This document shows positions 5,134-64,000 of a stretch of 64,000 nt of DNA, one piece after another (positions within the stretch are counted from its first letter, which is position 1; each line of letters starts with the position of its first letter). The notes beneath the pieces were generated by a model. It worked only from the letters and a program-made list of their open reading frames with translations. It was not told the origin of the DNA and made no database searches. Location: positions 3,580 to 67,579 of the forward strand of contig JBAXUB010000006.1 of NCBI GenBank assembly GCA_037129895.1. Reading direction: 5' to 3'. Origin of the DNA: Candidatus Tayloriibacteriota bacterium. GTDB lineage: Bacteria; Patescibacteriota; Minisyncoccia; Phycocordibacterales; PALSA-1337. Made by a program: the position numbers and the translations under genes.

Positions 5134-5211
5134 ATCGCTATCATACTTGATAAGCGATAAAGAAATGATTAAGAAAAGATAAAATTTTGATAAATATTGT
5201 CTCAAATTTCA

Positions 5212-11325: not shown

Positions 11326-12396
11326 ATGAAAAAAATTAAACAATTAATCCCGAATATCAATTTTACAGAGTTTTTGCTCTACACTACTCCGAATGGAAAG
11401 GTGAAGGTTGAAATCTTTTTGCGTGATGAAAATATATGGCTAACACAGGCAATGATAGCGGAACTTTTTGATGTTGAGTCAAATACTATTACTTATCATT
11501 TGAAAGAAATATTCGTCTCAAAGGAATTGGATAAGGATTCAACTACTCGAAAAATTAGAGTAGTTCGAGATGAAGGGGGTCGTAATATTAGTCGTGAATT
11601 GGATTTTTATAACCTAGATGCCATACTTTCTGTGGGTTATCGTGTTAATAGTGCTCATGCCACTCAATTCCGTATTTGGGCCACTGAAAGGCTGAAGGAG
11701 TACATAATCAAAGGATTTACAATGAATGATGAACGGCTCAAAGATCCACGTAGTATTTTTGGTAAAGACTATTTCGAGGAACAGTTGGCCAGGATTCGTA
11801 ATATTCGTTCAAGTGAGAGACGAATGTACCAGAAAATAACTGATATCTATGCACAGTGTAGCGCTGATTATGATAGAGATGAGGAGATTACCAAGATATT
11901 TTTTGCTACTGTACAAAACAAACTTCATTTTGCTATCACAGGTCAGACAGCGGCTGAGATAATATATTCTAGAGTAAAAAGCGACAAACCAAATATGGGC
12001 CTGACCACATGGAAGAATGCTCCAGAAGGTGGTATCAGAGAGACTGATGTGATAATTGCCAAGAACTATTTATTGGAGAGAGAGCTCGATAATCTGAATC
12101 GAATTGTAACTATGTATCTGGACTATGCGGAAATGCAGGCTACGCAAGGTAAAGCTATGTATATGAAAGATTGGGTTAATAAGCTCGATAAATTTCTGAA
12201 ATTTAATGAAAAACAAATTTTATCTGACTCAGGAAAGATCAGCCATGAAGTAGCAGAAGCTTTGGCTTTCAAGGAATATGAGAAATATCGTGTTGAGCAG
12301 GATATGAACTATGTTTCTGATTTTGATAGGGAGGTAAAGAAGATGTTGGAAATTAGCAAAAAGAGAAAAGGAAATATAAAGAAGAAAGACAAATAA
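11326..12396 (+). CDS. RhuM-family protein (virulence protein RhuM-like, putative DNA-binding)
   Basis: The N-terminus LLYTTPNGKVKVEIFLRDENIWLTQAMIAELFDVESNTITYHLKEIF matches the RhuM family signature (...LYQTEDG..K..V......WLTQAQMAELF). Length ~350 aa. Confidence 0.7.
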   Translation: MKKIKQLIPNINFTEFLLYTTPNGKVKVEIFLRDENIWLTQAMIAELFDVESNTITYHLKEIFVSKELDKDSTTRKIRVVRDEGGRNISRELDFYNLDAILSVGYRVNSAHATQFRIWATERLKEYIIKGFTMNDERLKDPRSIFGKDYFEEQLARIRNIRSSERRMYQKITDIYAQCSADYDRDEEITKIFFATVQNKLHFAITGQTAAEIIYSRVKSDKPNMGLTTWKNAPEGGIRETDVIIAKNYLLERELDNLNRIVTMYLDYAEMQATQGKAMYMKDWVNKLDKFLKFNEKQILSDSGKISHEVAEALAFKEYEKYRVEQDMNYVSDFDREVKKMLEISKKRKGNIKKKDK

Positions 12397-37536: not shown

Positions 37537-37565
37537 AGCTAGAATGATAGCGCAAAATCGGAAAG

Positions 37566-37601
37566 TATACAAAAAGCACCCGACCTATGAAGATCGGGTG
37601 C
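37566..37601 (-). terminator. rho-independent terminator (minus strand)
   Basis: Minus-strand reading: GCACCCGAtcttcataggTCGGGTGCttttt, an 8-bp GC-rich stem followed by T5. Confidence 0.75.
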
Positions 37602-43500: not shown

Positions 43501-46500
43501 TCCAAGTGATAGCTGCTTCAGTGTCAAAGATTTCTGCTGTTGTTACATTAGATATTCTCGGACCTATTTCGGTTCTAAATGTATATGAGGCAGAAGATGA
43601 TTGGCCGGAATTGTTCGATGCGTCTTGTGACTCGACTAGGAAATAGTACTGGGTATCTGGTATCAATCGATCTAGAATCACTGTATGAGAGGTGAGCATC
43701 GATGGAACTCCAACTGATGCCGAATATGCACTTTTATCAGTCCCAGGATATGTAGTCGAAGCAACATAATAAATGATCGAGTTTGCATACTTGTTTGTGA
43801 TCCAGGATATATAGGCACCAGATGTTGTTGTCGTACCTATAGTTACTGTGCTCAATGATGGTAATGCTATATCACTACCACCTGTACCATCTGGACGATC
43901 GGCTGTCGATGCTGGCGAAAATAGTGATATGTTCCCATCGTTATCTTCTATTGACACTTTATATGAATATGTAGAGCTCTCAGATAGTCCGCTATCTACA
44001 ATGTAGTTCAGCATTCTATTGGTTATCGTTGTAAGTAAGCTAAAACCTCCACCGTTTACAGAACGATATACGTTATATCTCCTGAAACCTTGAGGTGGTA
44101 CAGGAGAAACAGCCCAGGCATAGAATTCACGCCATTCTAGTGTGTTAGGGTTAGATATGTCTTGGAAGAAATTACTCGCAGTTGGTATTGGCGGAGTGAC
44201 AGAGACGATTGATGATGAATTGTTTTTAGCATCTTTGAATACTGCGTATATAGTGTCACCAGAAATGACCGAGGATGTCGTTGTGGAATTGGCGTATGCG
44301 TAGTAGTTAGGTACGTCAGAAAGATCTGCTGTCTTCCCTACCTTCATCACTAATGCGGTATCGTCTGTGGCTGATAGAGTTATGAGTGCTGGTGATTGAG
44401 AAGCATCGATACTAATAGGCAAAGCACCTAGACTTGGAGTTTTTGTGTCCAAGACAAAAGCAGCAGATGTAGATGATGCTGTATTATTTGCCGCCTCTCT
44501 ATCATCCACAATTACCTTTATCTTTGCATTGGCTGCATATTGACCCGTCAATTGGTTAATGATCGTTGAAGTGGCTGTAAATGTTCTATATGTAGTAGTT
44601 GATACAGCCTTGTCACTGTAACTACTTGCTTGCATAGTCGAAGTCGTCGAAATCAAGGTATATGATGAACCTCCATCGAGAGAATAGTAGAAAGATGGTC
44701 TCAAATAGCCAGGCATCGTTGTCCCAGTATCAGTATCTGGATCACGTATGGAATAGTTGATGGTGATCGTTCCATCACTATTCTGCACAGCACCAACGCC
44801 GCCAGCTCCAGTAGTCGGGTAGTTAGGATCAAAGCCTGGAGATGCGTTTACCACATATGTTAATGTGGCACTATTCAATGTTGGAGTGGATGCTCCATCT
44901 GATATTAGGTATGCTTTGTATTGAACCCATTGGTCGTTCACGCCATCTGTCTGAGCTGCTGGTGCAGCTTCAGTTCCGTTAAGGTTTGTGTAATATGTCG
45001 TGGTTGCACCGGTTGGACCAATAAAGTTTGACCACGTGCCTGGTACACCAGCATTGTCTGGTGCAGTCCTGATCTGAAATTTAATACTCGAGCTTGATGT
45101 TGTAGCTTGTGACCATGATATGCCAGACAAGAGATTTGCTGAGCTTGATGTGTTATATGAAGATGATGTGAGTGTTGTCGACGTAGCGTATGTGGAATAT
45201 GTGATCGTGACATCATTAAGTGTTGGTGTTACTGCTGTATCTGAGGTCGAAAGTGTAGCTTGGTATTGTACATATCTATGACCATTAGTGACGCAGCTGC
45301 CAGTGCTTAGTGCCGCACCACTTGTGATGTTGGAACAACTTGCGTATGCCGTTGCACCTGCCATTGATGAGCTATTGGAAGATCTAGCTTTTATGCTTAC
45401 TGTCTGAGCACCAGTCTTCGTCCAGGATAATGTGCCCCAGTTGGCTACACTCTTACCTGCGTCTATGACGCCTGAAGTGTATGTGCCGGAAGAGGCGTAG
45501 ACTCTGGATGTGGCATTAAATCTATAGAACGCTTTTCCACCAAATCCGGGAGATGTATCACCCTGAAGGATATACAATCTAGTTCCGTTACTGTCACTGA
45601 CAACTTCTATCTGACTACCAGCGCCCAAGCCAGTAGGTAGACTTGTCAGTGTTGTCCACGAATTGCCCGTTATCGAATACCTATAGAAACCTGTACTGGA
45701 ATTACCAGGTGATGCATAAATTTCATCAGCTGAACCATCACGAAACATGATTGACCCATACATATCATTGCCTCCTGGTGCCGGAAATATCTCAGGAACA
45801 TTAGTGAGTGGTGTCCATGTATTGGACGCAATAGAATATTTCTTCAAAGATTGAGTATCGCCACCAAGTAGCATATATATCGTGTCATCAGTCCCATTCC
45901 TTATCATCCTCCCACTTTTACCCAAACTGACTGGAGACATATTACTCCAGGAATTTCCAGATATCGAATACCTAGCCAGATTACCTATTGTTGGTCTGTA
46001 AATATAATTTTCACCAGGACCTCTAATTCCATTTCCGTAAGCCTTAATCCAGCCGTCTGTCGGCGGTGTTAGCAGGGTCCAAACATTAGTTGATATTTGA
46101 TATTTGTACATCTGGTCATTTGACTCATAAATATAATCTTCTCCGTCTACATGCAGTAATACATCCGTAGGATTAGACTGAAGAGAATTTACTGCATCTG
46201 CCAACCAAGTCCATGTATTCGATGATATTGTGTAAACGAGCAAAGAAGCACCGGCTCTCAGATAAATTTTACCAGTAGTTATGTCTATAAAGGATCTTGA
46301 GCCCAAAAAATTAGTCGTTGGTATTGTTGCCAAAGCCGTCCATGTATTATCTGCGATGGTAAATTTATAGAATGTAGTTCCGTTTCCGCCCGAAAGCACG
46401 TATAACTCGTTATTATATTTATGCAGAGATGAACCCATCGAAATATTTACCGGTGAACTTGTAAGAGTTGTCCATGTGCCAACATTAGAGATACTACTCG

Positions 46501-46975
46501 TAAGTTGAATACTCGTAGCTGCAGCTGTTCCAGTAGTCTCTGTAGATGAGAAAACTTTACCGGTAAGATTAAAACCAGTTGAAGTCGTCCCATCGTCGGT
46601 CATAATATTTGTCGTTGTTGATGAAGCTATCTGTAAATCTGCTCCAGCATTAACGGCTAGTGTTGCTGCATCTTTTGCAGAATATTTAGTCCAGTTTGAT
46701 TGATTGGATGTATGATTGGGGTATGTTCCACCATCTAGTCCGCCGGACCATGTTGCTTGTGACCATGTATATGTGGCAGCTAGAGAAGTTTGATAGTCAA
46801 AATATATACTAGATCCTACAATAGATAATAGAAGTAAGAGTGCAATACCCCTTCTACCTACGATAAAATACGCCAAGTACACACATTTTCCGAGGAAATT
46901 TAACTCGTCAGTCTTCAGGACTTTTCTTATACTGTAAAAACGTTTGCGTCGCCGACGTTGTGTAAGCATTTGCAT
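40568..46975 (-). CDS. giant cell-surface protein (2135 aa): N-terminal anchor, beta-propeller-like region, multiple FN3-like repeats
   Basis: N-terminal Arg-rich segment plus a TM/signal anchor. Kelch/propeller-like repeats (...NTWT.L...P). At least 8 FN3/purple-acid-phosphatase-N-like modules of the form (SATITWTTD.QSNSQVEWG...T..H.V.L..L...T.Y.Y.V). It is co-oriented with the ABC transporter genes and has a shared terminator. Confidence 0.7.
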   Translation of the reverse strand: MQMLTQRRRRKRFYSIRKVLKTDELNFLGKCVYLAYFIVGRRGIALLLLLSIVGSSIYFDYQTSLAATYTWSQATWSGGLDGGTYPNHTSNQSNWTKYSAKDAATLAVNAGADLQIASSTTTNIMTDDGTTSTGFNLTGKVFSSTETTGTAAATSIQLTSSISNVGTWTTLTSSPVNISMGSSLHKYNNELYVLSGGNGTTFYKFTIADNTWTALATIPTTNFLGSRSFIDITTGKIYLRAGASLLVYTISSNTWTWLADAVNSLQSNPTDVLLHVDGEDYIYESNDQMYKYQISTNVWTLLTPPTDGWIKAYGNGIRGPGENYIYRPTIGNLARYSISGNSWSNMSPVSLGKSGRMIRNGTDDTIYMLLGGDTQSLKKYSIASNTWTPLTNVPEIFPAPGGNDMYGSIMFRDGSADEIYASPGNSSTGFYRYSITGNSWTTLTSLPTGLGAGSQIEVVSDSNGTRLYILQGDTSPGFGGKAFYRFNATSRVYASSGTYTSGVIDAGKSVANWGTLSWTKTGAQTVSIKARSSNSSSMAGATAYASCSNITSGAALSTGSCVTNGHRYVQYQATLSTSDTAVTPTLNDVTITYSTYATSTTLTSSSYNTSSSANLLSGISWSQATTSSSSIKFQIRTAPDNAGVPGTWSNFIGPTGATTTYYTNLNGTEAAPAAQTDGVNDQWVQYKAYLISDGASTPTLNSATLTYVVNASPGFDPNYPTTGAGGVGAVQNSDGTITINYSIRDPDTDTGTTMPGYLRPSFYYSLDGGSSYTLISTTSTMQASSYSDKAVSTTTYRTFTATSTIINQLTGQYAANAKIKVIVDDREAANNTASSTSAAFVLDTKTPSLGALPISIDASQSPALITLSATDDTALVMKVGKTADLSDVPNYYAYANSTTTSSVISGDTIYAVFKDAKNNSSSIVSVTPPIPTASNFFQDISNPNTLEWREFYAWAVSPVPPQGFRRYNVYRSVNGGGFSLLTTITNRMLNYIVDSGLSESSTYSYKVSIEDNDGNISLFSPASTADRPDGTGGSDIALPSLSTVTIGTTTTSGAYISWITNKYANSIIYYVASTTYPGTDKSAYSASVGVPSMLTSHTVILDRLIPDTQYYFLVESQDASNNSGQSSSASYTFRTEIGPRISNVTTAEIFDTEAAITWNTSTNADSSVWYSSSTDMSNSVEIIGSGSRSTNHRIKLTNLVKGTRYYYYVKSVDADGNVATDMNVVNGTINYYTLNTSEDTSKPIISGVETALISDSDATITWTTDKQSNSQVEWGIMKDPTASTSKTTGLSTDHYVTLSNLQKNTQYFYRVLSEDKSGNVGIGDNTGEMYTFTTNGILFDNVATSSITTTGATITWNTNTVSDSTVFYEAVTSYPGTNKTNYTKSVGVSNMTTSHSVVLSNLTPGTQYYFLVTSEDSQAQINQQAAETYTFITNPGPSISQILTSDTQDTEATVTWHTNLASDSSVYYSTNSNLTSPEVVTSVATTTSHSITLTGLVKGTNYYYYVKSIDEEGNVATDKNVVDGVINYYVVNTTRDIVPPVISDVKTPIIGESSATITWTTDEQSNSQVEWGIAKDLGIRENEPDMFKTQHSMSITGLVSSTTYYFVVRSRDRSENIAIDDRAGEKYSFTTLAPTVVYVTKTEYVGGGGGGALDNRDLTVPVISNVVVDSIGGNSATISFKSSKIATGKVKYGKTTSYGSETKRTGVYGLTHQISLNNLTPLTTYHFKAYVTDIYDNVGEGVDTTFTTLANGVVSQDIPIDVDTSSMTAEETSAYNKALSASASIIKAMLFGLIKNSNLSNISESQLASSLSALASKAVASPVISGTDIQVESSANTATIRWVTDKASNSLVGYSKASDYKNDSSYSISAGFPDEKTSDHEVILQNLAPSTTYHYQVRSQSLVGTASLSSDRTFTTTSLVPDISNIKFEKILESEATLTWKTDLPTKSQIEIKDNSTGKITKVDDPSFVKEHTYTANNLNYSTGYTFTVNAIDNDGNTSNPSIIPFSTTVSTEAPKISNVRITSSIIPDRIETTQSIISWKSDKPATSRVLFAQGTSDNLDQSTPTETNLVRDHIIVTTLLKPGTIYKIVVESGDAAGNATKSEPYTVLTQKPKGSVVDLIFKNLDTTFGFMKGE
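42261..43235 (-). repeat. near-identical ~80-bp in-frame direct repeats (at ~42258-42340 and ~43149-43230; 891 bp = 297 codons) inside the FN3 giant gene
   Basis: ttattccccattcaacctgagaattggattgtt(c/t)atctgtagtccaggtgatcgt... occurs twice and corresponds to duplicated FN3-pair modules (EWGI.KD...). Confidence 0.7.
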
Positions 46976-53068: not shown

Positions 53069-53099
53069 TGTAGATGTAGAGGTCTGACCTCTACAGATC
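53069..53099. repeat. REP copy overlapping the stop codon of the cohesin-like gene
   Basis: tgtagatGTAGAGGTCTGACCTCTACagatc. The TGA stop of the 53098-54297 gene lies at its 3' edge. Confidence 0.8.
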
Positions 53100-54297
53100 A
53101 GATCTTCTTTATATCATTGATTCCCTTCTCGATCTTCTTCTCGATAGACGTGAGCTCTGCATCGAGATCTTTCTTTGTACCCTCTTCTCGCTTCTTTGCA
53201 CCAGATATTGATCCTGACTTTATCAGATATTTCACGTAGCTATTCAAACCGGTCTTCAAAGTATCAAAGCCCTTATGTAATGTCTCTTTGGCCTCTTTCA
53301 CTTCTTTGAACTTCTTGTGTCGTAAACGTAGGTACATAGACAAGATGATGAATAGAGCGATGATTAGTAGGATCGATAAAATCGTCAGTAGTAGAACTAT
53401 TACCTTCAATGATATAGACGTTCCGCCAATATTCAGAGTCGATCCATTGACTACTTCTACATATGATATCTGTGATGACGGACCCATAGTACCGTTAGGC
53501 AAGATATTGATTGCCCATATCTTGTAATAACCGGAGCGTACAGAATATTTGAATGTGTAAGCGAAACTTCCATCAGGATTAACAGTTATCTGTGTAATGT
53601 CTGGATTGTATTTACCTTTTTGAATATAAACTTGCATCGATACATTCGGCATACTATTACCAGTAAATGATAACGTGTCACCTTCATTCAATGTATCCGG
53701 AATATTCGACAATATAGGTGCTGTAGGAATCAGGTTTGCCGATGAGGCTAGTTTCGTAGTTGTAGCCAGGGCGTCCGTCGCGGGTACGATTTCCTCTACT
53801 GGCACTGATGCCGCTTCTCCGATATTTACTGATAAAGCCTTTGATACAGATAACACATCAGTACCTAGTCCATCATTTGCAAGAACTGAACCATTTTGCA
53901 GGGTGACCATCGTCTGACCTGGTTTCTTGGCTCTGAATGTGACACTCACGATAGCTCCGTTAGCACCGTTCCAACCTGGTGAAGGTCGTCCTCCAGAAAG
54001 GTGCAGGTTACCTGATGAGTTCGAATACTTCGGCTCCTCAGCCCAGATGGAAAATATTGATTGAGAATATCCAACACTTTGAATAGATAATAGACTCGTG
54101 TCGTACTTCATATCTAGAGAAGCGGCATTGACCGCCATGCTCTCTGAGTCTAGGTCGATCGTAACTGTGAATGTTTGGCCAGCTCGTACTGACTCACTCT
54201 CTGGCACCATATATAGTATCGCGGCATTCGTAAAACATGGGAATGCGAAAATAGATATTGCAGTAACTATCGGGAATAGAAAATAGTTCTTTTTCAT
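53098..54297 (-). CDS. membrane-anchored cohesin-like surface protein 1
   Basis: Signal peptide; a ~130-aa domain (GQTFTVTIDLDSESMAVNAASLDMKYDTSLLSIQSV...FSIW...LHLSGGRP.G...GAIVSVTF) fitting the cohesin beta-sandwich pattern; an Ig-like segment; a TM helix; and an ~80-aa basic coiled-coil cytoplasmic tail. Confidence 0.55.
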   Translation of the reverse strand: MKKNYFLFPIVTAISIFAFPCFTNAAILYMVPESESVRAGQTFTVTIDLDSESMAVNAASLDMKYDTSLLSIQSVGYSQSIFSIWAEEPKYSNSSGNLHLSGGRPSPGWNGANGAIVSVTFRAKKPGQTMVTLQNGSVLANDGLGTDVLSVSKALSVNIGEAASVPVEEIVPATDALATTTKLASSANLIPTAPILSNIPDTLNEGDTLSFTGNSMPNVSMQVYIQKGKYNPDITQITVNPDGSFAYTFKYSVRSGYYKIWAINILPNGTMGPSSQISYVEVVNGSTLNIGGTSISLKVIVLLLTILSILLIIALFIILSMYLRLRHKKFKEVKEAKETLHKGFDTLKTGLNSYVKYLIKSGSISGAKKREEGTKKDLDAELTSIEKKIEKGINDIKKI

Positions 54298-55277
54298 TGG
54301 ATGCTTTTTATGCTGGTCTGATTATACCACCTTATGACTCGTGGAAAAATGATGATGAATAGAATAACGACTATGATCAGAAGCAAATATGCTGACACTC
54401 CAATATTAAATGGCTTAATTATTGATTCTTCCCTCACATTACCTGATGCATCGAAGGCTCTAACCTCGATCGTACTTATCCATTTCTGATAATAGAGAAT
54501 TTGCGGGCTTTGGGCTTGTGTCCAGAGTTTACTGACACCAAGAATGGAAATAATCCACGGACGTTCCTCGATCTCATATCTCGTGACACCAGATCCTTTG
54601 TCTACTGCAAAGAACGATACGAAGTAGTCGTTGTCAGTCACAGTCGGATCACTACCAAGTGATATGTCGAATGGTTCTGGCGAAGTAGTATCGTCACTCG
54701 GTTTATAGACGATTTTGGTGGCTCTATCATCATTACCGACTGACAATCTGAGTTTGGTAATTGTGACATTGGATAATGCTGTTCCTCTTCCATCATTAAT
54801 ATATGCATTGAAATTGTCCACACTGAGTGATTGATCGCCATGCTTGAGGGCGGTCAAGACAAATGAAAGAATATTCCCACTAGAACCAGAATATCCCCCA
54901 GGAAGTCCGCCAGAGAATCTGATCTCAGACGATGTAGATGATCTGTGAATGTTCTCTAGACTAGGCCGATCGATCCAAAGCGATATGAACGAACCCCCTA
55001 TTTCAATATTCGATACCTCAAATGCTTGCGTTGGTATGAGGATAGATCCGCCCATCGAATTGATCTGTTTACCTTTTGCGTCTAGGTTTAGAGAAACTAT
55101 GAAACTGTCACCAACGTTGTACTTTGATTGCGCCGTTTTCATCGTTACAGTCTGTGCTGACGTTGTCGATGGTAGATTGAATAGAATATAAGATACAGAA
55201 AATACGGCGACCAAAACAAATCTCTGCAAATGATTCTCTCTGTGCCATATGTCCACTATTTCGTTAATATTTATCAT
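54294..55277 (-). CDS. membrane-anchored cohesin-like surface protein 2 (paralogue of 53098-54297)
   Basis: Same architecture as the neighbouring gene and alignable to it (GDSFIVSLNLDAKGKQINSMGGSILIPTQAFEVSNIEIG..FISLW...IRFSGGLPGG..GSSGNILSF). TM helix and short tail. Its start overlaps the stop of the neighbouring gene. Confidence 0.55.
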   Translation of the reverse strand: MININEIVDIWHRENHLQRFVLVAVFSVSYILFNLPSTTSAQTVTMKTAQSKYNVGDSFIVSLNLDAKGKQINSMGGSILIPTQAFEVSNIEIGGSFISLWIDRPSLENIHRSSTSSEIRFSGGLPGGYSGSSGNILSFVLTALKHGDQSLSVDNFNAYINDGRGTALSNVTITKLRLSVGNDDRATKIVYKPSDDTTSPEPFDISLGSDPTVTDNDYFVSFFAVDKGSGVTRYEIEERPWIISILGVSKLWTQAQSPQILYYQKWISTIEVRAFDASGNVREESIIKPFNIGVSAYLLLIIVVILFIIIFPRVIRWYNQTSIKSIQ

Positions 55278-55300
55278 AAGTATTGTCGATGAATGAACTA

Positions 55301-56674
55301 TTACCTAGTTCCAGTCCACCAGTACATCATTATAGAAAAATCTTGGAGGTTGACTCGACCGTCACCATTCAGGTCTGCACAGGGATTTGTTGGTTTAGTG
55401 TTACCCCAGAAGTACATCAGGATTGAAAAGTCAGTAATATTCACTTTGCCATCATTATTGATGTCGGCATGTGCACTACAAGCCGTAGCTTTCGGTGCAG
55501 TATTCAGGACATCTTTGTCGCCGACTTGAAAACCAAGTAATGATGAAAATGCCGAAGCAATATTCTTGTTGGCTATAGTCTGTGACTTCGTCGTATGTTC
55601 ACCTTTTTCTAGTAATGAAGAATTCAATGTATATATCCAACGGCCATATTTATCTGCTATTGTTTGATCGAGGATTTCCTTTTCTGAATTGATCATGATA
55701 TTTACTGAAGATATCGGGTATGAATATCCAAAGAACTTGATCGTGTTACCAATCTTGACGACGGATTTGTCAGAGGTGATAGTCGGTGCAACGATGATGT
55801 CCGATGTTGTGACAGATTGACCAGCGATTGCGTTAACTGTAAAACCAAAAGTCGGTGATTTGTAGTTGTCCTTGTCCAGGGCATATATTCCGAATGAGTA
55901 AATTCCAGAGGATACTGGGAATTCAGCCGCAAAATCACCGTTACTATCAGCTATGACCTGCTTTCCTATCGAGGCATCTTTCAGTATCACGATCTTGGCT
56001 CCAGGGTAAGCCAGACCTTTCAAAGAAATCTTTGTACTTGCTGCAGGACTAGGACTTCCGGCTCCACCTCCTCCTCCGCTACTGCCACCGCCTGTTGGAG
56101 GTGTCGGTGGTACTACCGGTGGTGTTACTGGTGTAGTAGCTACTGGTGTTGCAGATACTTCAGTCGAAGAAGCCACCACCATACCGAATGCATCTTGAGC
56201 TTGAATTATAAAAAAATATGGCTGACTGTTTGTAAGTGAGCTTCTCGTAGCACTGGTAACATTACCTACAGAAGTGAATGTATATGGTCCGCCAGAAGTA
56301 TTGGATTGACCGACGAGGTATCCACCAATATTGAATCCGAGGAATCCTTCTGAAGCTGTCCAACTAAGATCGACTTTCGCGTCTCCTGCTGATGCGGTGA
56401 CGACCGGTGTTGTGACTTTAGGAAAATATAGGAATCCAGAGTTCAACATGAATGTTGTCGCAGTCGAAGAACCGATAGCTATCTGTGACATACTGCCAGT
56501 CAAGCCAAAACTAGCTGATGTCATCTCCCTCACGCTGTTAAATGAAGAGTCGATAACTTTGTAGCTCGCTGAGCCAGGGTCAGTAGCGTTTACTATCAAA
56601 ATCGGCAAAACCAGTGCTACTGTCAGCAAAGAAAATCGTAATAATGTCGTTTTTGCATATTTACTCATAGTCAT
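55301..56674 (-). CDS. secreted multidomain protein with C-terminal type-I dockerin
   Basis: Signal peptide, FN3-like domain, PT/G-rich linker (PPTPPTGGGSSGGGGGAGSP), Ig-like domain. The C-terminal duplicated 22-residue calcium-binding segments DINNDGKVNITDFSILMYFWGN and DLNGDGRVNLQDFSIMMYWWTG are joined by an 8-residue linker, which is the canonical dockerin architecture. Confidence 0.72.
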   Translation of the reverse strand: MTMSKYAKTTLLRFSLLTVALVLPILIVNATDPGSASYKVIDSSFNSVREMTSASFGLTGSMSQIAIGSSTATTFMLNSGFLYFPKVTTPVVTASAGDAKVDLSWTASEGFLGFNIGGYLVGQSNTSGGPYTFTSVGNVTSATRSSLTNSQPYFFIIQAQDAFGMVVASSTEVSATPVATTPVTPPVVPPTPPTGGGSSGGGGGAGSPSPAASTKISLKGLAYPGAKIVILKDASIGKQVIADSNGDFAAEFPVSSGIYSFGIYALDKDNYKSPTFGFTVNAIAGQSVTTSDIIVAPTITSDKSVVKIGNTIKFFGYSYPISSVNIMINSEKEILDQTIADKYGRWIYTLNSSLLEKGEHTTKSQTIANKNIASAFSSLLGFQVGDKDVLNTAPKATACSAHADINNDGKVNITDFSILMYFWGNTKPTNPCADLNGDGRVNLQDFSIMMYWWTGTR

Positions 56675-59600
56675 ATTACAGGCGCTGGTTCTTCAGTTGC
56701 GGGTGGTGGAACTGGTGTAGCTGGTGGCTCTACAGCTGGCGGTGCAGTAACAGGCGTTGATTCTGATGGTGTTTCTGCCGGCGATATTACTGGTGGTTCA
56801 GTTGATGCAGTCGATGTGGCTGGTGGTTCAGCCTGAAGTGGCGGTTCTATTATAGGAGTAGTTGTAGCGGATTCGATTGAAATAGGTGTCGAGGTGGCGT
56901 GAGGTACTATTTCTGGTAGTGTAACTTGGACAGTGGAAGAAGCTATAATCTCTGGTGTTGATGTCGCCGTCGTAGACCCTGTAGTTGTCGGTGTTGTAGA
57001 TGAGGTCGGTTCAATAACAGTTTGTGGAATGACCGGACTAACTGAATTTGCTACCATCATCTTCTTCAAGGCTTCCTCGTCTATACATGTTGATCCGAGA
57101 CAAATGGTTTTTGAATTTACCAATTCAACGTCAGCTTGTTTGGCAGTAATCTTGTTCAATATCCAATTACCCGTTGACTCGATAGCCTTCTCAATAGCTG
57201 ATACGAGTTGACTGATGAATGTCGGAGACGTTACGATGGCCGTCACAGTGGAGCTGGCAGTTTTTGAAGCGGATGCAGCGGTGATTTCCTCCATAGTAGA
57301 AGTACTAAATATATCCTTAACAACGTTCATTGCAGACAACTCCTTTACAGAGTTAACCAATGCCGCCAAGATCGGCCGGTCTGACAATGTCAGCATGCCA
57401 GATGAGTCCACACCGACGGCCTCTGGGATACTCGCTTGAACATTTTGTGCGGAGAAGCCAGCATAAGTCGTCAACGTGTCGTATCCCGTCACATCTTTCC
57501 ATTTATATAAGATAGGATTCAATGTCAAAACATCTGAAAGACCTCGATTGAAATTACCCTGAATATTCTTCAACCTCTCATCTGATGAGACTGTGATGTT
57601 ACCTGATGCATCCGAGACGAGGGTACCAGTAGTGAACGTATCATTTCGCATGGTGCCACTGACGTGAAGTTTGGCGGTTGGAGATATCGTGCCTATGCCG
57701 ACGTTGCCAGATACGGATAGATTAGAAGCAAAGTTATATTCATTGATTGTATATTGTGTGCCGGCGTCCGTAATGGTTGCACTGCTAGGCTGAAGAGTTG
57801 TAGCTGGACCCGAAGTCCAAGTACCTGTATGGCGAATTTCAGATGATATACCGCAGATCCAGCTCGTTGCGAACCGAACCCAGACAGAAAATGTTTGATT
57901 CGTTACACCTGATCCGCTTGTATTGACGACTACAACATTGTCCACGAACCTTATTCCACTACTACCATTGTATGTATCTAGACCAACAATCATCGATTCG
58001 ATACCACTTGCAGTGTTACGCCCCTGCACGTTGATATGTTGTCTGGTTGGAATACCCAAACTACTAGCGGCATATAGGTCCACATCCAGTGTGGACCCAA
58101 TCCAAGCCCCGTTGTTGACAAATGTACCGATCTTCATCCAGTGACCACCATCTGTTCCACACTCATTGCTCGTACCAAATACTCCACCGTATATATAGCG
58201 CATGCCAATAGAGTTAAGTGCAGACATTGTCCCTCTGACATCGAGATTGTATCCAGGAAGAGTTGTTCCTATACCAATGGAGCCATTTTCTTTGATGTAT
58301 AAAGCACTATTTTGAGTAGCAGAACCGTTAGTTACGGAGAATGAAAGAGCACCTTTAGGAGCACCATTGGTATGATCAACGAATACACCAGTAATTGCTG
58401 ATGAAATATTACCCCCAGCAGATCTAAATTCATATGCGCCAAAGTTACCGTTTGTTGGATTATCCTGTTGAATATCGAGAGTAACTGCTTTCCATGCCGA
58501 TGATAAAGTCGTGTTGGTTGTCGATCCGGAAAATATAGACGACACTGCACTATCAGCGGCTCCACCAGTCAGTGGAGTATATGCATGGATTCTTACTCCA
58601 GCATACATTGAGTTGTAGATATCCAAGATAGAGATAGGATTCTCCGTCCCAATCCCCACATTTCCGTTATCTAACACTGTGACTTTAGGTGCATTTGTAG
58701 AGTCTGCAATCTGAAATGCTCGACCTGTAGCGATACCTGTACCCGTTACTGAAAGTTTAGCTGACGGAGACGTTGACCCTATCCCGACGTTGCCAGCGTT
58801 TATTACTAAACTAGCTCCCGCCAATGTTGATGCGCTTGAAATGGTACCGCCCAATCCGACGTTTCCACCGCTCTGCAGAACCATCCTCAATGGCTCGCCT
58901 CCGGCAGCTTGACCACCGTAAATCTCAAATTGCCCACCTGTTCCATCGTAGACACTTCGAATTGTACCGAGTGGTAAATAACTTCCCGATGGATAACCAA
59001 AGAAAGAAAAAGAACCCAAAACATCATTAGTTGAAATATTGGTAGGTGAAGCGACTGTTCCTCGAGCACGATAAAAGCCTACTGTCGGTCTGTCACTGGC
59101 AGTTCCATCTGCAAAATTGATTTTTAACCCATCACCGTATCCCAAAGCCGCACCGCTGTTAGATGCAATATTTAGAATAGTTCCGGGATTCTCCGTCCCA
59201 ATCCCCACATTCCCATTTGCAGCTATTGTGAACATTCTAGCGTTCGAGGAGGAGGAAACAGTAAAAGCATTTGCTGATCCTGCCGTTCCATATATATCAA
59301 GTTTGGCGCTCGGAGTTGTGGTGCCGATACCAACGTTACCAGAACTCGTAATTCTCATTTTTTCTGTTAGAGTAGTAGAAGCACTAGCGCCTGTATTAGT
59401 TAAAAAAGTCAATATTCCACTATAACCAGCACCAGAATACAATTGCTCTATTCTAGATGGCTCCCAGTTATCTGACTCCCTCTTAAAACTAAAATAGGAT
59501 CCGAGTCCTGCTGTTGTACCAATCGTAGGTTCTAATCTTAAATTTCCTTTAACATAAAGTTTTTCAGTAGGATTCATTGTACCAATCCCGACGTTGCCAT

Positions 59601-62600
59601 TCGCCAATACCGTAAACACCGAAGAAGTCGCAAATCCCGCCGAAGTTGTTGAAGCGATACTGAATAGTGGCAGAGTTGATCCGGGGGCTTGTTGTATTGA
59701 GAGTCTAGCAAAAGCTGTAGAAGTACCGAGTGAAGCATTACCAGATGCAGAAATATTGAATACATCTCCAGCGACGCCACCGTTGGATGTTACGTTCAAA
59801 TAATTGGCTGTCTGGGACAATATACCATTTAGACTTAGGATTGATCTTGCAGCAAAGCGTGTACCCAACATTAGTTGAGCGTTGAGAGCAAGATCTGTAC
59901 CTATACTAGCTGCGTCATTGACGAACATATCAGTATAATATGTGTCAGAGATTTGGAATTCTGTTTCAAACCAATATCTATAACCAGCATCCAATGTTCC
60001 TGACATACCCATTACTTTATAGTACCTATATGCTGTAGTGTTCTGACTAAGGGTTGTTATTATATACGTACCACCATTCGTACAACTTCCATCGTTTAAT
60101 TGTGTTGTAGTTCCTATGTTCGTCCAATTTGAGTTATCATTACTTCCTTGCCATTGCCATAATCCTTCGGGACATGTAAAACTCCAGTATGTTTTTGCTG
60201 AATCTATTATTTTCTTTGAGCCAAAATCAAAAGTGATAGATTGTGAACCGTCCAATACCACACCTCCAGTTAGAGTGATACCCGTTGAATTTGTACTACC
60301 ATCTACAAGAGTGGGTATTGTGTACTGATGCCATGAACTACCAGTTTCAGACATAGATATGATACTAGTTCTATTTCCAGTACTATATATATTCGTATAT
60401 GTCGTTGTGGCTGTACTGCTTCCGATATGGAGACGAGCTATAGGGGCGTTCTGTTGTATTCCCGTTAACTTAGCAGCCGTCACGACCATTGCGTCACCAA
60501 GACTTGTACTTGCTGTATTGATACTTAGTAGATTAGCCGATTGCCCAATAGCACCCGTTATACTCATCGTCGTCTGTAGTGGAACTAGGGAGTTTAGTGT
60601 AATGGAACCAAACCCAGCATTACCCGTAGCTGATAGACTACCGACGATAGATGTGTTCCCCGTTACTGATAGTGCGTCATTTCCGTTTGATATCTTGAAC
60701 TCGATTTCTTCCCATCTTCGTCCGTTTGCATCAAGTGTTCCAGAGACACTCACAAGTTTATAATAGCGATACCCAATAGAGTTCGTACTGAGAGTTATCA
60801 TAATATACTCACCTGTTCCACCTACCCCTGAAGATAGTTGAGATGTCCCACCAATATTAGTCCATGTTGAATTATCATTTGAACCTTGCCATTGCCAGAT
60901 ACCCTCTGATTCTCCAAAGTTAAATGTATTCTTTGCAGCAGTTACAATTTTTGGTGACCCAAAATCAAATGTTACAAATTGAGAACCGTTTAAAGTCGTT
61001 CCACCTGCAAGTTGAATTGCGTTTGTATTGTTGTTTGCAAGAACTCCATCTATAATACTATTCAATGTGTAGAAGTGCCATGTTCCACCACCCTCTGATG
61101 TACCAACATAGGTTCTTCTATCACCTGTTCCACCGCTATTACTATAGGACGGCGTTTGATTATCTACAGCAATCAATGCAGCTGATGTAGTAGTACCAAC
61201 ACCAGTAAGTCCGCTATCTAGAATAGTAAACTTTGCTGCATAAGTGCTATCTGTAACTTGAAAGGCCTTTCCTGTTGTGATGCCAGAACCTGAGACTGTA
61301 AGCCTAGCTAGGGGACTTGTCGTCCCAATACCGACGTTGCCGCTATCTAGAATAGTAAACTTTGCTACACCATCACTGTCTGTTGTCTGAAAAGTAGCCC
61401 CTGTTGTTGTACCAGAACCATTAACTGACAATTTAGCTGCTGGTGTAGCGTATGGGCCAATTCCGACATTTCCATTAGATTTGAGAATAGAAAAGCGTAA
61501 AGTCCCACTAAGAGAAGTGAAGTCATTTGGAGAAGTGTAATAACGTAAATTACCACCACTTTGAACTCCAAGGGCGGCATGCGCAGCCACTTGATTTTCA
61601 ATAAAAGTAATAAATCCAGAGGTGTTTATCGCTGGCCTAAGTGTCAATGATCCAGTTGCGCCTCCACCAGCACCAAGCCCTGCACCAAGAGCTGCTGTAG
61701 AAAGAGCTCCTCCGACAGTTAGATTGTTCCCTACCACAAAACTGTCAGGCGTTTTTAATCCGATTGCATCAGCATATAAAGCTGCATTTACTACTCCTGA
61801 GTTATAAAAATTTATTCTCGGTACACCACCACTACTAGGTAGAAACTCTATGTAGTCACCAGTTGCATCGTTTATTTGCATTGGTCCAAGAATGCTCAGT
61901 GTTTTTCCAGATATAAAACTATTAGTCCCTATTGCAGTACTTCCAGCCAAATATGTCTGTCCAGAAACTGATAGGTTTGTTGTAGAAGCATTACCTAGTG
62001 AAGATTGACCGGTAACTGATAGCGTTCCTGTGGCTGTAATGTTTGCAGCTGTTAGGTTGCCTGAGAAGTAGCCGTCTCCTACTACGGTGAGCTTGGATGA
62101 TGGGGTTGTGGAGCCGATACCGACGTTGCCGCTCGTATCAACTGTCAGTCGCCTCGTAATAGTTGAAGCCCCATCCCAAGTATAAATACCAAAATTATCT
62201 GTACCATTAGGCATCCCAAAACCCCATTGCGGAGTAGAGGCAGTTACAGCCGTAGCACTTTGTATTAGAAAGGCGGCATCGTGCGTATTATTATTCCTCA
62301 TAACCCTTGCCCAAGAGTTTCCAATAGAGTTCCAACCAATATCCAAAGGTACACCCGGACTCGTCGTCCCAATTCCCACATTCCCTCCATTGTAGTAAAC
62401 ACTGGAACTATTCGTCGTCCACTGACTAGATACTTTGTTGTTCCAGTCTGTGGTAGATGCAGATAGAGGGATGATATAGCTAGGATTGAGTGAGAGTACT
62501 CCAGTAGATGTAGCATACTGTAGACCTGTAGCTGTAGTAGACAGGGCGTTTCTGGAACGTACGTCTGTATAGTAGAGGTTAGTACCTTCTGCTAGAGCTG

Positions 62601-64000
62601 AGGTGGTGGTGCCAGCTAAGTCTGTAGCGAATAGTGAAGTTGAGTAGAATCTATTGATAACTCCTTGTATGAGATTGTCTGTGTTGATGGCGAGGGATGA
62701 GGTGGAAAGTGCGGAGACTGCACCGTTGGTGCCGAAGAGGAGACCTGAGAGTGAACCTACAGAGAGACCGCCAGTGGTTGTGGTGCCTGTGACTGATAGC
62801 GTTCCTGTGGCTGTAATGTTTGCAGCTGTTAGGTTGCCTGAGAAGTAGCCGTCTCCTACTACGGTGAGCTTGGAACTAGGAGATGAGGAACCGATGCCAA
62901 CTGATCCTTGAACAATTAAACCATTTGATGGTGCAGTATATGTACCAGCATAACTTGATCCGATAGCAGCTGAACCACCTACATCAAGACTATTTAAGAT
63001 TGACGCTACATTTACCCCTAGTCCATTCGGTACTGTAGTAGAAGCTCCACCTGTATCATACGGATAGCCTAATGGCGAAAAGGGCGCTGTCCACCTTGCA
63101 ATACCCTTAGAAACACGAAGCTCATCAACATATCCTTGATAGTAAAATGGTGTTGAATAATTAAGTTTTCCAATCGTCACATCATTCGTATTATTCATTA
63201 GTGACTCAACGCTAGTCCAGTGGTATATTTCGACTCCGTTCTTATATGTATAAAAGTCATTACCACTTCTTGTAACTGCCATATGTTGCCAAGTATTGAG
63301 AGTTACATCTCCCATTCTAATCCTATTACCGATATCCCATGAAACTCCATTTGAACTTGCTAAGAACTCCCACTTACCACTCTTTATTGTAATTCTGAAT
63401 GGTCCAAGAGAAGAAGCAGCAGATTTACTGATCACGTCTCCATCTTCATTGGTTGCTGTTGGGTATGCCCAGAAATCAATTGTGAAGTCTCCTGATCCAA
63501 ATTGAAAATCTAAACTGTTGGCGGCGCTCAGATAATCTCCCGTTCCATCAAAGTATGCTGCCTTACTTCCAAAATAATACTGAGTTGTGCTCTGTGTCAC
63601 GTCTCCACTAGGAGTTAAAGTACGTCCACTCGATGACGTATCAATAAACGTGTTTCCAGATCCTTCTGCAGGCATTAAGAGTTTAGTATAAGAGTCGTTT
63701 CCACCATATCCAGGCATGGCAGACGTACCAGCCCCTGAAACTATCAATGAACCAATAAACTGAGAGGTGCTTGTAGCACTACCTGTAAAAGTAGCACCGA
63801 CTATATTAGTAGCGTATAGGTCTCCAATGACAGTTAATTTATACGGAGGAGTAGAAGTCCCAATCCCCACATTCCCTCCATTGTAGTAAACACTAGTACC
63901 ATTCGTCGTCCACTGACTAGATACCTTGTTGTTCCAGTCTGTGGTAGATGCAGATAGAGGGATGATATAGCTAGGATTGAGTGAGAGTACTCCAGTAGAT
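56671..64000 (-). CDS. giant tail-fibre-like repeat protein (>2440 aa; 5' end beyond window) with C-terminal intramolecular-chaperone autoproteolysis domain and Pro/Thr-rich tail
   Basis: More than 10 copies of G-N-V-G-I-G-T-x-x-P-x-x-K-L-x-V. The track start at 63870 is GTG inside a repeat (the upstream in-frame sequence reads ...GGNVGIGTST). Region 63871-64000 duplicates 62366-62509 in frame, so the ORF very likely continues past the window. The C-terminal SDERLKNIQGNF...LNPILYKWKD...GFSAQNVQASIPEAV...LTLSDRPILAALVNSVKEL matches the Peptidase_S74 / CIMCD consensus. The final ~170 aa are a P/T/S-rich tail. Confidence 0.75.
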   Translation of the reverse strand, partial: STGVLSLNPSYIIPLSASTTDWNNKVSSQWTTNGTSVYYNGGNVGIGTSTPPYKLTVIGDLYATNIVGATFTGSATSTSQFIGSLIVSGAGTSAMPGYGGNDSYTKLLMPAEGSGNTFIDTSSSGRTLTPSGDVTQSTTQYYFGSKAAYFDGTGDYLSAANSLDFQFGSGDFTIDFWAYPTATNEDGDVISKSAASSLGPFRITIKSGKWEFLASSNGVSWDIGNRIRMGDVTLNTWQHMAVTRSGNDFYTYKNGVEIYHWTSVESLMNNTNDVTIGKLNYSTPFYYQGYVDELRVSKGIARWTAPFSPLGYPYDTGGASTTVPNGLGVNVASILNSLDVGGSAAIGSSYAGTYTAPSNGLIVQGSVGIGSSSPSSKLTVVGDGYFSGNLTAANITATGTLSVTGTTTTGGLSVGSLSGLLFGTNGAVSALSTSSLAINTDNLIQGVINRFYSTSLFATDLAGTTTSALAEGTNLYYTDVRSRNALSTTATGLQYATSTGVLSLNPSYIIPLSASTTDWNNKVSSQWTTNSSSVYYNGGNVGIGTTSPGVPLDIGWNSIGNSWARVMRNNNTHDAAFLIQSATAVTASTPQWGFGMPNGTDNFGIYTWDGASTITRRLTVDTSGNVGIGSTTPSSKLTVVGDGYFSGNLTAANITATGTLSVTGQSSLGNASTTNLSVSGQTYLAGSTAIGTNSFISGKTLSILGPMQINDATGDYIEFLPSSGGVPRINFYNSGVVNAALYADAIGLKTPDSFVVGNNLTVGGALSTAALGAGLGAGGGATGSLTLRPAINTSGFITFIENQVAAHAALGVQSGGNLRYYTSPNDFTSLSGTLRFSILKSNGNVGIGPYATPAAKLSVNGSGTTTGATFQTTDSDGVAKFTILDSGNVGIGTTSPLARLTVSGSGITTGKAFQVTDSTYAAKFTILDSGLTGVGTTTSAALIAVDNQTPSYSNSGGTGDRRTYVGTSEGGGTWHFYTLNSIIDGVLANNNTNAIQLAGGTTLNGSQFVTFDFGSPKIVTAAKNTFNFGESEGIWQWQGSNDNSTWTNIGGTSQLSSGVGGTGEYIMITLSTNSIGYRYYKLVSVSGTLDANGRRWEEIEFKISNGNDALSVTGNTSIVGSLSATGNAGFGSITLNSLVPLQTTMSITGAIGQSANLLSINTASTSLGDAMVVTAAKLTGIQQNAPIARLHIGSSTATTTYTNIYSTGNRTSIISMSETGSSWHQYTIPTLVDGSTNSTGITLTGGVVLDGSQSITFDFGSKKIIDSAKTYWSFTCPEGLWQWQGSNDNSNWTNIGTTTQLNDGSCTNGGTYIITTLSQNTTAYRYYKVMGMSGTLDAGYRYWFETEFQISDTYYTDMFVNDAASIGTDLALNAQLMLGTRFAARSILSLNGILSQTANYLNVTSNGGVAGDVFNISASGNASLGTSTAFARLSIQQAPGSTLPLFSIASTTSAGFATSSVFTVLANGNVGIGTMNPTEKLYVKGNLRLEPTIGTTAGLGSYFSFKRESDNWEPSRIEQLYSGAGYSGILTFLTNTGASASTTLTEKMRITSSGNVGIGTTTPSAKLDIYGTAGSANAFTVSSSSNARMFTIAANGNVGIGTENPGTILNIASNSGAALGYGDGLKINFADGTASDRPTVGFYRARGTVASPTNISTNDVLGSFSFFGYPSGSYLPLGTIRSVYDGTGGQFEIYGGQAAGGEPLRMVLQSGGNVGLGGTISSASTLAGASLVINAGNVGIGSTSPSAKLSVTGTGIATGRAFQIADSTNAPKVTVLDNGNVGIGTENPISILDIYNSMYAGVRIHAYTPLTGGAADSAVSSIFSGSTTNTTLSSAWKAVTLDIQQDNPTNGNFGAYEFRSAGGNISSAITGVFVDHTNGAPKGALSFSVTNGSATQNSALYIKENGSIGIGTTLPGYNLDVRGTMSALNSIGMRYIYGGVFGTSNECGTDGGHWMKIGTFVNNGAWIGSTLDVDLYAASSLGIPTRQHINVQGRNTASGIESMIVGLDTYNGSSGIRFVDNVVVVNTSGSGVTNQTFSVWVRFATSWICGISSEIRHTGTWTSGPATTLQPSSATITDAGTQYTINEYNFASNLSVSGNVGIGTISPTAKLHVSGTMRNDTFTTGTLVSDASGNITVSSDERLKNIQGNFNRGLSDVLTLNPILYKWKDVTGYDTLTTYAGFSAQNVQASIPEAVGVDSSGMLTLSDRPILAALVNSVKELSAMNVVKDIFSTSTMEEITAASASKTASSTVTAIVTSPTFISQLVSAIEKAIESTGNWILNKITAKQADVELVNSKTICLGSTCIDEEALKKMMVANSVSPVIPQTVIEPTSSTTPTTTGSTTATSTPEIIASSTVQVTLPEIVPHATSTPISIESATTTPIIEPPLQAEPPATSTASTEPPVISPAETPSESTPVTAPPAVEPPATPVPPPATEEPAPVI
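62015..62877 (-). repeat. perfect 86-bp in-frame direct repeat pair (62015-62100 and 62792-62877; 777-bp = 259-codon period) inside the giant gene
   Basis: actgatagcgttcctgtggctgtaatgtttgcagctgttaggttgcctgagaagtagccgtctcctactacggtgagcttgga occurs twice identically. Confidence 0.8.

Follow-up and report, generated by a model that had tools for sequence, protein, structure and literature searches.

A giant S74-terminated protein of Candidatus Taylorbacteria as a probable self-cleaving, trimeric surface fibre

The window analysed here is a 64,000-nucleotide stretch of a Candidatus Tayloriibacteriota genome (assembly GCA_037129895.1, contig JBAXUB010000006.1, positions 3,580 to 67,579 of the forward strand), and its far end is occupied by the visible part of a giant minus-strand gene, the fibre gene. 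The encoded fibre protein is probably a giant, exported, trimeric surface fibre of the uncultured, ultra-small Candidatus Taylorbacteria that resembles the MAT (mosaic adhesive trimer) fibres of Bdellovibrio as well as phage tail fibres in build, is matured by a C-terminal Peptidase_S74 (S74) domain, is decorated with lectin-type modules and mediates attachment; a probability of roughly 0.72 is assigned to this reading. The identity of the domain, its catalytic residues, its predicted fold, the cellular context of the gene and the distribution of the family are established by the analysis. By analogy with characterised systems, these results support the proposal of a first-pass annotation of this DNA that the protein would be a trimeric, autoproteolytically matured surface fibre. 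Such a fibre has direct experimental precedent, since the Bdellovibrio MAT protein Bd3182, a trimeric beta-helix, has been shown to cleave itself at S782 through its S74 domain (Caulton et al. 2024, Nat Microbiol; PMC10769870; PDB 8OJN/8ONB/8ONC), and MAT crystal structures are matched by the fibre family at E-values from 7e-11 to 4e-5.

Identity and catalytic residues of the S74 domain

The minus-strand translation of 56671-57585 reads SDERLKNIQGNFNRGLSDVL...EEPAPVI and then a stop codon, which is exactly the SDERLK-starting, 304-residue C-terminus that the first-pass annotation had described; it is called the C-fragment below. The resemblance to the intramolecular chaperone consensus that had been proposed for it is borne out by a Pfam match to Peptidase_S74 (PF13884; E 9.8e-9; 35.8 bits, well above the gathering score of 22), which covers positions 1-57 of the 58-position profile and begins exactly at the Ser. 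The expected tail-fibre profiles match as well: seven PHROGs tail-fibre families align with C-fragment residues 1-85 (best E 6.4e-11). NCBIfam gives zero matches to any part of the fibre protein, and a local hidden Markov model (HMM) finds no second S74 domain in the window.

Conservation singles out the same residues. In an alignment of 81 homologues, S2139, D2140 and K2144 (S-D-x-x-x-K) are invariant, and the catalytic Ser-Lys dyad is thus present when the protein is properly aligned. E2141, R2142, L2143 and N2134 are nearly invariant, while G2133 occurs in 81 of 81 sequences and D2130 in 80 of 81. In the T5 fibre protein pb1, the bond N-terminal to the Ser is cleaved (Thr1263 / Ser1264), the Lys at +5 acts as the base, and cleavage follows correct trimer formation only (PMC4690869). 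Transferring this mechanism by homology places the scissile bond of the fibre protein between Ser2138 and Ser2139, with Ser2139 as predicted nucleophile and Lys2144 as predicted general base. The invariance of these residues argues that cleavage does take place.

Structure-based comparison adds to this. A family profile built from the 81-sequence alignment was used against solved structures; its S74 part reaches the phage tail fibre 8jov (8e-6, via SDERLK) and the MYRF ICA domain 7dc3 (3.4e-4), and the long-tail-fibre distal subunit 6f45 is met at E 0.17. The profile, PHROGs, homologue, conservation, structure-profile and fold matches together make the S74 domain call secure.

Predicted fold of the chaperone domain

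An AlphaFold2 model of residues 2092-2323 has predicted local distance difference test (pLDDT) values of 89-97 across the S74 core and shows long helices behind it. The domain was modelled as a single chain, and the trimeric coiled coil lies outside that model. The predicted order of an alpha/beta core followed by helices is the fold that characterises C-terminal intramolecular chaperone domains (CIMCDs).

Foldseek comparison of this model with the Protein Data Bank (PDB) returns the MYRF ICA domain 7dc3 as the top match (E 7e-4, probability 1.0, TM-score 0.56-0.58), followed at weak E-values by the chaperone of the K1F endosialidase endoNF (3gw6, E ~0.1) and the GA-1 chaperone (3gud). In BFVD, 215 viral S74 models are matched at E <= 1e-3, with names that include 'intramolecular chaperone auto-processing domain', gp37 and neck-appendage protein. 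The first-pass annotation had likened the domain to K1F endosialidase and to the L-shaped fibre of T5. The former likeness persists as the weak fold match to 3gw6, the best solved matches being MYRF, 8jov and the MAT proteins; the latter is undetected by either sequence or fold.

The phage CIMCDs (K1F 3GW6, T5 pb1 4UW8, GA-1/phi29 3GUD and the T4-like gp37 type) share with the fibre protein the Pfam family, the Ser-Lys dyad with the Lys at +5, the position right after a trimeric beta-structure and the alpha/beta core with long helices behind it, as predicted here. They differ in that their domain has 115-155 residues and ends the protein, whereas the fibre protein continues for 304 residues from the Ser, about 180 of them chaperone-like and 124 forming a tail. 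An extreme C-terminal position is typical of phage members and not defining for the Pfam family; the fibre protein departs from it, and MYRF does likewise.

The extension behind the S74 core

The first-pass annotation had placed a Pro/Thr/Ser-rich tail of about 170 residues behind the chaperone domain and had called this arrangement unusual. The tail is present, but just about 124 residues are of low complexity; the preceding 96 are the predicted helices and the Cys hairpin of the chaperone. The hairpin lies in C-fragment residues 161-180 (ICLGSTCIDEEALKKMM), where it is flanked by the sole two cysteines of the C-fragment and followed by a helix. Its motif, C-x(3-11)-C-[VI]-[TD]-x-[ED]-[QE]-[LF]-x-x-[LM]-[LV], is found again in 24 of 45 extended homologues, where its position is unchanged, and in 57 of the 118 cluster representatives that lie closest. 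P0065 and P0077, both short proteins, practically end with the hairpin, which is therefore taken to cap an enlarged chaperone domain some 180 residues long.

The extension is indeed unusual when set against phages and Bd3182, because cultured phages have only the 85-residue core in common with the fibre protein (about 37% identity). It is typical of the fibre's own clade, being the rule among its closest relatives: 105 of the 118 representatives have more than 160 residues after the Ser. Beyond the hairpin, relatives bear S/T/P-rich or acidic low-complexity linkers of 100-130 residues, often followed by an Ig-like DUF5011 (PF16403) or Big_3 (PF07523) domain. The composition of these tails is conserved and their sequence is not.

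This conserved architecture invites another interpretation, in which the C-fragment is no throw-away chaperone and has its own role with or without cleavage, S74 still folding and trimerising the fibre. The C-fragment might then be a spacer or tether in the wall or S-layer, a second secreted trimer or a MYRF-like release switch, and in relatives the added Ig-like domain would share in that role. An extension that exceeds the canonical S74 length (~115-150 residues) and recurs in the family, folded Ig-like domains appended in many relatives, tails of consistent length and composition and the absence of all this from cultured phages fit such a role. Several observations make it unlikely all the same. 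A hydropathy and LPXTG scan finds neither a transmembrane helix nor an LPXTG-type signal after S74 in the C-fragment, and in the 81 homologues its yield is limited to scattered LP.TG-like strings and a single hydrophobic repeat of Pro and Val, with no credible anchor among them. A MYRF-like C-terminal anchor is rejected on these grounds. Anchors and signals are found at the N-termini of relatives instead, the tails keep a composition and not a sequence, and the invariant catalytic residues argue for cleavage.

Capping loops and modules of the fibre shaft

Upstream of the chaperone, the G-N-V-G-I-G-T-x-x-P-x-x-K-L repeats that had been noted earlier are confirmed in 15 copies. Their spacing is irregular, from 24 to about 540 residues; they are recurring punctuation between other modules and not a tandem repeat array, and Tandem Repeats Finder detects no DNA tandem repeats in the fibre gene or the PT-rich tail. 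All 15 correspond to the capping-loop consensus of the Bdellovibrio MAT fibres, V-G-G/N-pi-x-x-P-x-x-x-L, which was defined on the Bd3182 crystal structure (PMC10769870). Through its capping-loop and beta-helix region the family profile reaches the MAT crystal structures of Bd2133 (7e-11), Bd3182 (7.8e-7), Bd1334 (9e-7) and Bd2439 (4e-5). The predicted cleavage would leave a mature fibre that ends in ...SGNITVS.

The modules between the capping loops (Table 1) include a LamG jellyroll and two copies of a duplicated module that are 47% identical to each other (E 3e-45 in a fragment-against-whole comparison). Copy 2 resembles the discoidin-like profile PF22633 at E 1.7e-5, its 25.7 bits lying below the Pfam cut-off of 27.8. 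The module before the last capping loop, a candidate for the tip, has zero Pfam matches even at E 0.5, its AlphaFold2 model is unusable (pLDDT 38.4), and two remote homologues alone cover its full length. The better of them is P0259 from a Candidatus Aenigmatarchaeota (DPANN) archaeon (27% identity, 89% coverage, E 5e-8), and an S74-core locus among the genome contigs (L054) is labelled 'uncultured archaeon'. Fibre modules may thus be common to episymbiotic bacteria and archaea.

The same modules bear on whether the protein might be an enzymatic spike, a depolymerase or glycanase that degrades partner polysaccharide through its orphan or lectin-like modules. The first S74 domains to be described were those of endosialidases and capsule depolymerases (PMC4690869), the nearest monomer match of Bd3182 is the P22 tailspike (PMC10769870), and an uncharacterised module of about 190 residues sits where phage spikes hold their receptor-binding or catalytic part. 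Yet no glycoside hydrolase, lyase or pectate-lyase-type profile matches anywhere in the 2,442 residues, even at E <= 0.5, the recognisable modules are binding-type folds (LamG, discoidin-like), and with its 15 capping loops the molecule has the build of a long fibre instead of a compact spike. An enzymatic spike is accordingly quite improbable, and an attachment fibre is preferred.

Extent of the fibre gene

The open reading frame listed as 56671..63870 in fact continues to the window edge without closing, so that the window shows 2,442 residues of the protein and does not reach its N-terminus. A 153-nt direct repeat runs into this edge, and this is probably why every assembly breaks at the 5' end of the gene. 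Both copies of the repeat lie inside the fibre gene, 1,491 nt apart, and the ENA, Logan and NCBI assemblies end within or beside the second one; the gene may therefore hold further repeat units and be considerably longer. The NCBI product, MEI6304859.1 (P0135; 2,479 residues), is truncated too, adding 37 residues and being still inside a repeat. It is named 'LamG-like jellyroll fold domain-containing protein', after LamG and not S74. Neither the window nor any of the assemblies found contains the fibre N-terminus, contigs with the neighbouring gene beginning at the identical point, and exact 40-mer scans of metagenome_contigs and genome_contigs for the 5' end give 0 matches.

Table 1. Features of the fibre gene, its product and the genes that adjoin it (window coordinates; residues numbered on the fibre protein unless given for the C-fragment)
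Feature	Position	Strand	Evidence or remark
Giant fibre gene, visible part (2,442 aa + stop)	56671..63999	-	5'-truncated at window and contig edge
153-nt direct repeat, copy at window edge	63848..64000		94% identical to 62357-62509
Laminin_G_3 (concanavalin-A-like lectin/jellyroll), residues 151-298	63106..63549	-	E 1.1e-17 and E 1.2e-18 in two Pfam scans
Duplicated module copy 1, ~170 aa (WQWQGSNDNS...), residues 931-1100	60700..61209	-	No Pfam match of its own
Duplicated module copy 2, residues 1178-1347	59959..60468	-	Sub-threshold F5/8 type C (discoidin, galactose-binding-like)
Near-orphan module, ~190 aa, residues 1906-2097, before last capping loop	57709..58284	-	Candidate tip / receptor-binding module
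Last capping-loop motif GNVGIGTISPTAKLHV and final strands, residues 2098-2138	57586..57708	-	Includes conserved R2118, D2130, G2133, N2134
Ser2139 codon, predicted nucleophile; predicted scissile bond Ser2138-Ser2139	57583..57585	-	Invariant 81/81; analogy with T5 pb1 and Bd3182
Lys2144 codon, predicted general base (Ser + 5)	57568..57570	-	Invariant 81/81
S74/CIMCD core, C-fragment residues 1-84 (SDERLK...VNSVKEL)	57334..57585	-	Pfam, PHROGs, pLDDT 89-97, local HMM
Variable, predicted long helices, C-fragment residues 85-160, presumed coiled-coil part of chaperone	57106..57333	-	pLDDT 50-77; length differs among homologues
Conserved two-Cys beta-hairpin and helix ICLGSTCIDEEALKKMMVAN, C-fragment residues 161-180	57046..57105	-	pLDDT 84-89
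Pro/Thr/Ser-rich low-complexity tail, C-fragment residues 181-304 (124 aa)	56674..57045	-	Without transmembrane helix or sortase signal
Dockerin gene, secreted product, C-terminal type I dockerin	55301..56674	-	Dockerin_1 E 8.7e-12; overlaps fibre stop codon by 4 nt
Third same-strand gene, N-terminal hydrophobic segment and C-terminal transmembrane helix	54294..55277	-	No Pfam match
Fourth gene, cohesin protein, signal peptide and C-terminal transmembrane anchor	53098..54297	-	Cohesin E 1.5e-8; overlaps third gene by 4 nt

Genomic context

The fibre gene lies in a cellular neighbourhood, as the first-pass annotation had concluded, noting also that no phage genes are visible in the window. By exact sequence match, the window belongs to a 67,754-bp contig of a metagenome-assembled genome labelled 'Candidatus Taylorbacteria bacterium'. 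The window and the 3.6 kb upstream of it encode tRNA-Glu, the Leu-, Glu-, Cys- and Asp-tRNA synthetases, a further class I aminoacyl-tRNA synthetase, MurG, a Mur ligase, penicillin-binding proteins, DnaB, RecR, YchF, CorA, GreA and ribosomal proteins. Pfam scans of the genes in these 64 kb and 3.6 kb find no capsid, terminase, portal, tail tube or sheath, baseplate or integrase gene.

Four genes stand on the same strand in close succession, and the junctions across the fibre, dockerin, third and cohesin genes are 4-nt overlaps or a 23-nt gap. The 4-nt overlap and shared strand with the dockerin and cohesin genes suggest a co-expressed surface module.

This context decides against the idea that the gene supplies the tail fibre of a prophage, a phage remnant, a tailocin or a contractile injection system. 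PHROGs tail-fibre families are indeed matched by the S74 core and by segments of the fibre, and among annotated phage genes the best counterparts, about 37% identical, encode tail fibres too. The housekeeping neighbours in 64 kb plus 3.6 kb upstream, with no phage structural or integration gene among them, the G+C content of the fibre gene near the local background and its translational coupling to the dockerin and cohesin genes all speak for a cellular gene, as do other patescibacterial homologues that lie among housekeeping genes (P0029 and P0037 among them) and a metagenome-assembled genome (MAG) with seven paralogous loci. A prophage fibre is rejected by the housekeeping context and is extremely improbable; a cellular surface fibre is retained.

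Homologues and distribution

A word-indexed search yields 281 database homologues (best E 3.5e-52), nearly all with PF13884. In an exhaustive HMMER search, the number of cluster representatives is 4,964 at E <= 1e-3 and 1,719 at E <= 1e-10. Among the 118 closest representatives, 62 have at least 1,000 residues, 17 at least 2,000, and the longest has 5,111. Giant homologues include one from Kaiserbacteria (2,623 residues) and one related to Taylorbacteria (3,036 residues). In species-representative genomes, 40 of the 56 related loci belong to Patescibacteria, as do all six that match the full extended domain. Many homologues bear the label 'tail fiber domain-containing protein' from the NCBI annotation pipeline PGAP; such entries are direct homologues with CIMCD and extension, and the labels are annotation labels alone.

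The closest relative, P0136, is 45% identical across the entire C-terminal 345 residues, and its signal-anchor lies about 100 residues ahead of the module that is repeated in the fibre protein. Full-length homologues have N-terminal hydrophobic signal or anchor segments, of at least three N-terminal types.

Some relatives deserve mention in their own right. In the MAG JAZKFG01 (Patescibacteria group bacterium) there are at least seven loci (L009, L010, L012, L014, L018, L021 and L028) with a core identity of 61-73%, a paralogue family that recalls the 13 S74 MAT genes of Bdellovibrio HD100. At L005 (contig NODE_7_length_292126), in another genome, the S74 gene, encoding P0029, overlaps the end of a gene for a 1,061-residue GDSL-lipase-domain protein by 38 nt, which may mean a single gene split by a frameshift; the flanking genes are type IV pilin-like (N_methyl), and a LamG domain is present in one of these too. 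Five giant S74-terminated homologues of 2,490-3,930 residues (P0209, P0218, P0203, P0193 and P0219) start with an excisionase-type helix-turn-helix (HTH) domain, HTH_17. The HTH_17 score is 35.9 bits for P0219 (cut-off 27) and 20-26 bits for the three others scanned, and P0203 is assigned by sequence similarity alone. Where the N-terminal sequences show one, a hydrophobic, transmembrane-like segment follows. Together, HTH_17 and this segment imply a layout of cytoplasmic HTH, transmembrane helix, giant extracellular fibre and S74, a mirror image of MYRF.

Comparison with cellular S74 proteins

Bdellovibrio MAT proteins of the S74 subgroup are among the closest known systems. Like the fibre gene, they are chromosomal, non-phage genes that encode a long fibre with capping loops and a C-terminal S74 domain with SDxxxK; their bearer likewise lives on other cells, and relatives of the fibre protein, too, occur several to a genome. 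Thirteen S74 MATs have been described in B. bacteriovorus HD100, and the supplement of the same study adds S74 or S74-like relatives from further predators and from one Omnitrophica bacterium, Patescibacteria being mentioned in neither its main nor its supplementary text (PMC10769870). There are differences as well. The MATs have about 1,000 residues and the fibre protein more than 2,479; in Bd3182 S74 ends the protein, with 140 residues after S782, whereas 304 follow here, including the Cys-hairpin cap and the 124-residue tail. Scaled from Bd3182, whose fibre of about 780 residues measures 55 nm, the predicted surface fibre would reach a length of the order of 100 nm. The fibre protein, unlike the MATs, carries internal LamG and discoidin-like modules, and its host is a monoderm-like bacterium of the candidate phyla radiation (CPR), not a diderm predator. 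[quoted passage not shown] Compared with typical phage fibres, the fibre gene is about 2-4 times longer, and it is a cellular gene.

The eukaryotic myelin regulatory factor, MYRF, offers a second parallel. Its ICA domain (7DC3) is a non-phage S74 domain that is not at the extreme C-terminus and has a capping-loop motif upstream. A transmembrane helix stands behind it, and cleavage frees an N-terminal transcription factor from the membrane of the endoplasmic reticulum; the fibre protein, in contrast, has no transmembrane segment after S74, and its N-terminal product is a predicted extracellular fibre.

Cellular S74 fibres are already known from the Bdellovibrio MATs (2024) and from the labels of annotation pipelines, and recognising the domain is in itself nothing out of the ordinary. 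The fibre protein stands out by its giant size, its internal lectin modules and its enlarged chaperone with the Cys-hairpin cap and low-complexity tail. A literature search on S74, intramolecular chaperones or tail fibres in Patescibacteria/CPR found no relevant paper.

Proposed mechanism and its weighing

A maturation pathway can be proposed from the known S74 systems. After export, the C-terminal S74 chaperone (residues 2139 to ~2318) would align three chains in register and template the folding of the preceding intertwined, beta-helical fibre with its 15 capping loops. One LamG jellyroll, the two copies of the duplicated module and the orphan tip module would stand out from this fibre as lateral lectin-like modules. 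Once a correct trimer has formed, Ser2139, activated by Lys2144, would cut the Ser2138-Ser2139 bond in each chain. The released C-fragment, of 304 residues and about 31 kDa, would consist of the S74 core, a helical stalk, the two-Cys hairpin cap and the Pro/Thr/Ser-rich tail of 124 residues. The mature fibre would most likely attach to the surface or the glycans of a partner or host cell. It may be co-transcribed with the dockerin protein and the membrane-anchored cohesin proteins, which would form a cell-surface scaffold. Trimerisation, cleavage, export, adhesion and the function of the operon are what we infer from these comparisons.

Several points weigh against the MAT-like fibre. Cleavage, trimerisation and surface location are argued from homology, and a single-sequence phmmer search of the PDB recovers no solved S74 structure, its one match being the capping-loop motif of Bd3182 at E 0.73. 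The 'folding sensor' residues of T5 (Arg1250, Asp1239) lack certain counterparts in the fibre protein, the helical region of the monomer model has low confidence (pLDDT 50-68), and fold comparison gives weak endoNF matches and does not recover T5 pb1. The phage model provides no purpose for the long tail behind the chaperone. Because the N-terminus is missing, export and anchoring are not readable from the fibre gene, and, as to the adhesion target, the tip module shows no recognisable fold and the discoidin-like match falls short of the Pfam threshold.

Other observations in the window

The three genes at 53098-56674 (minus strand) make up a cohesin-dockerin surface module of the non-cellulosomal kind, encoded here by a CPR bacterium; a literature search on these two domains in Patescibacteria found nothing specific. 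A second giant protein, of 2,135 residues, is encoded at 40568-46975 (minus strand), some 10 kb away from the fibre gene. It contains at least 7 Pur_ac_phosph_N/FN3-type repeats, has weak matches to Kelch and to the phage profile 'tip attachment protein J Ig-like', and is probably another surface protein. The leucyl-tRNA synthetase (983 residues; 34621-37572, minus strand) shows alpha/beta-hydrolase and Ser_hydrolase matches at residues 276-399 (E ~3e-8), an unusual hydrolase-type insert inside its catalytic domain. At the other window end, a weak IS200-like Y1 transposase match (4492-5205, minus strand) and a RhuM-family 'virulence' protein (11326-12396, plus strand; both from the annotation of L003) lie among cell-division and cell-wall genes.

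Implications for Patescibacteria

Patescibacteria, or CPR bacteria, are a large and mostly uncultured branch of the Bacteria that is thought to live attached to other cells, and the way in which they recognise their partners is largely unexplained. The fibre locus is a concrete candidate for partner recognition in these bacteria, with a predicted cleavage site at S2138/S2139. A wider reading is tentative and rather doubtful: Patescibacteria, and perhaps DPANN archaea, would possess a type of fibre of their own, giant, trimeric, phage-like and matured by S74, with which these episymbionts recognise their hosts. Their enlarged chaperone, with its helical stalk, disulfide hairpin cap, low-complexity tail and often an Ig-like domain, would have a second function after cleavage, for instance that of an independent trimer, secreted or at the surface, or that of a transient tether by which the release of the fibre is timed, and some paralogues may link the fibre to a cytoplasmic HTH through a transmembrane helix. 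The relatives of the fibre protein, with about 40 patescibacterial genome records and up to 7 loci per genome, carry the principle of MAT and phage fibres into a third lifestyle, and the conserved extension behind the chaperone is a feature that goes beyond the phage model.

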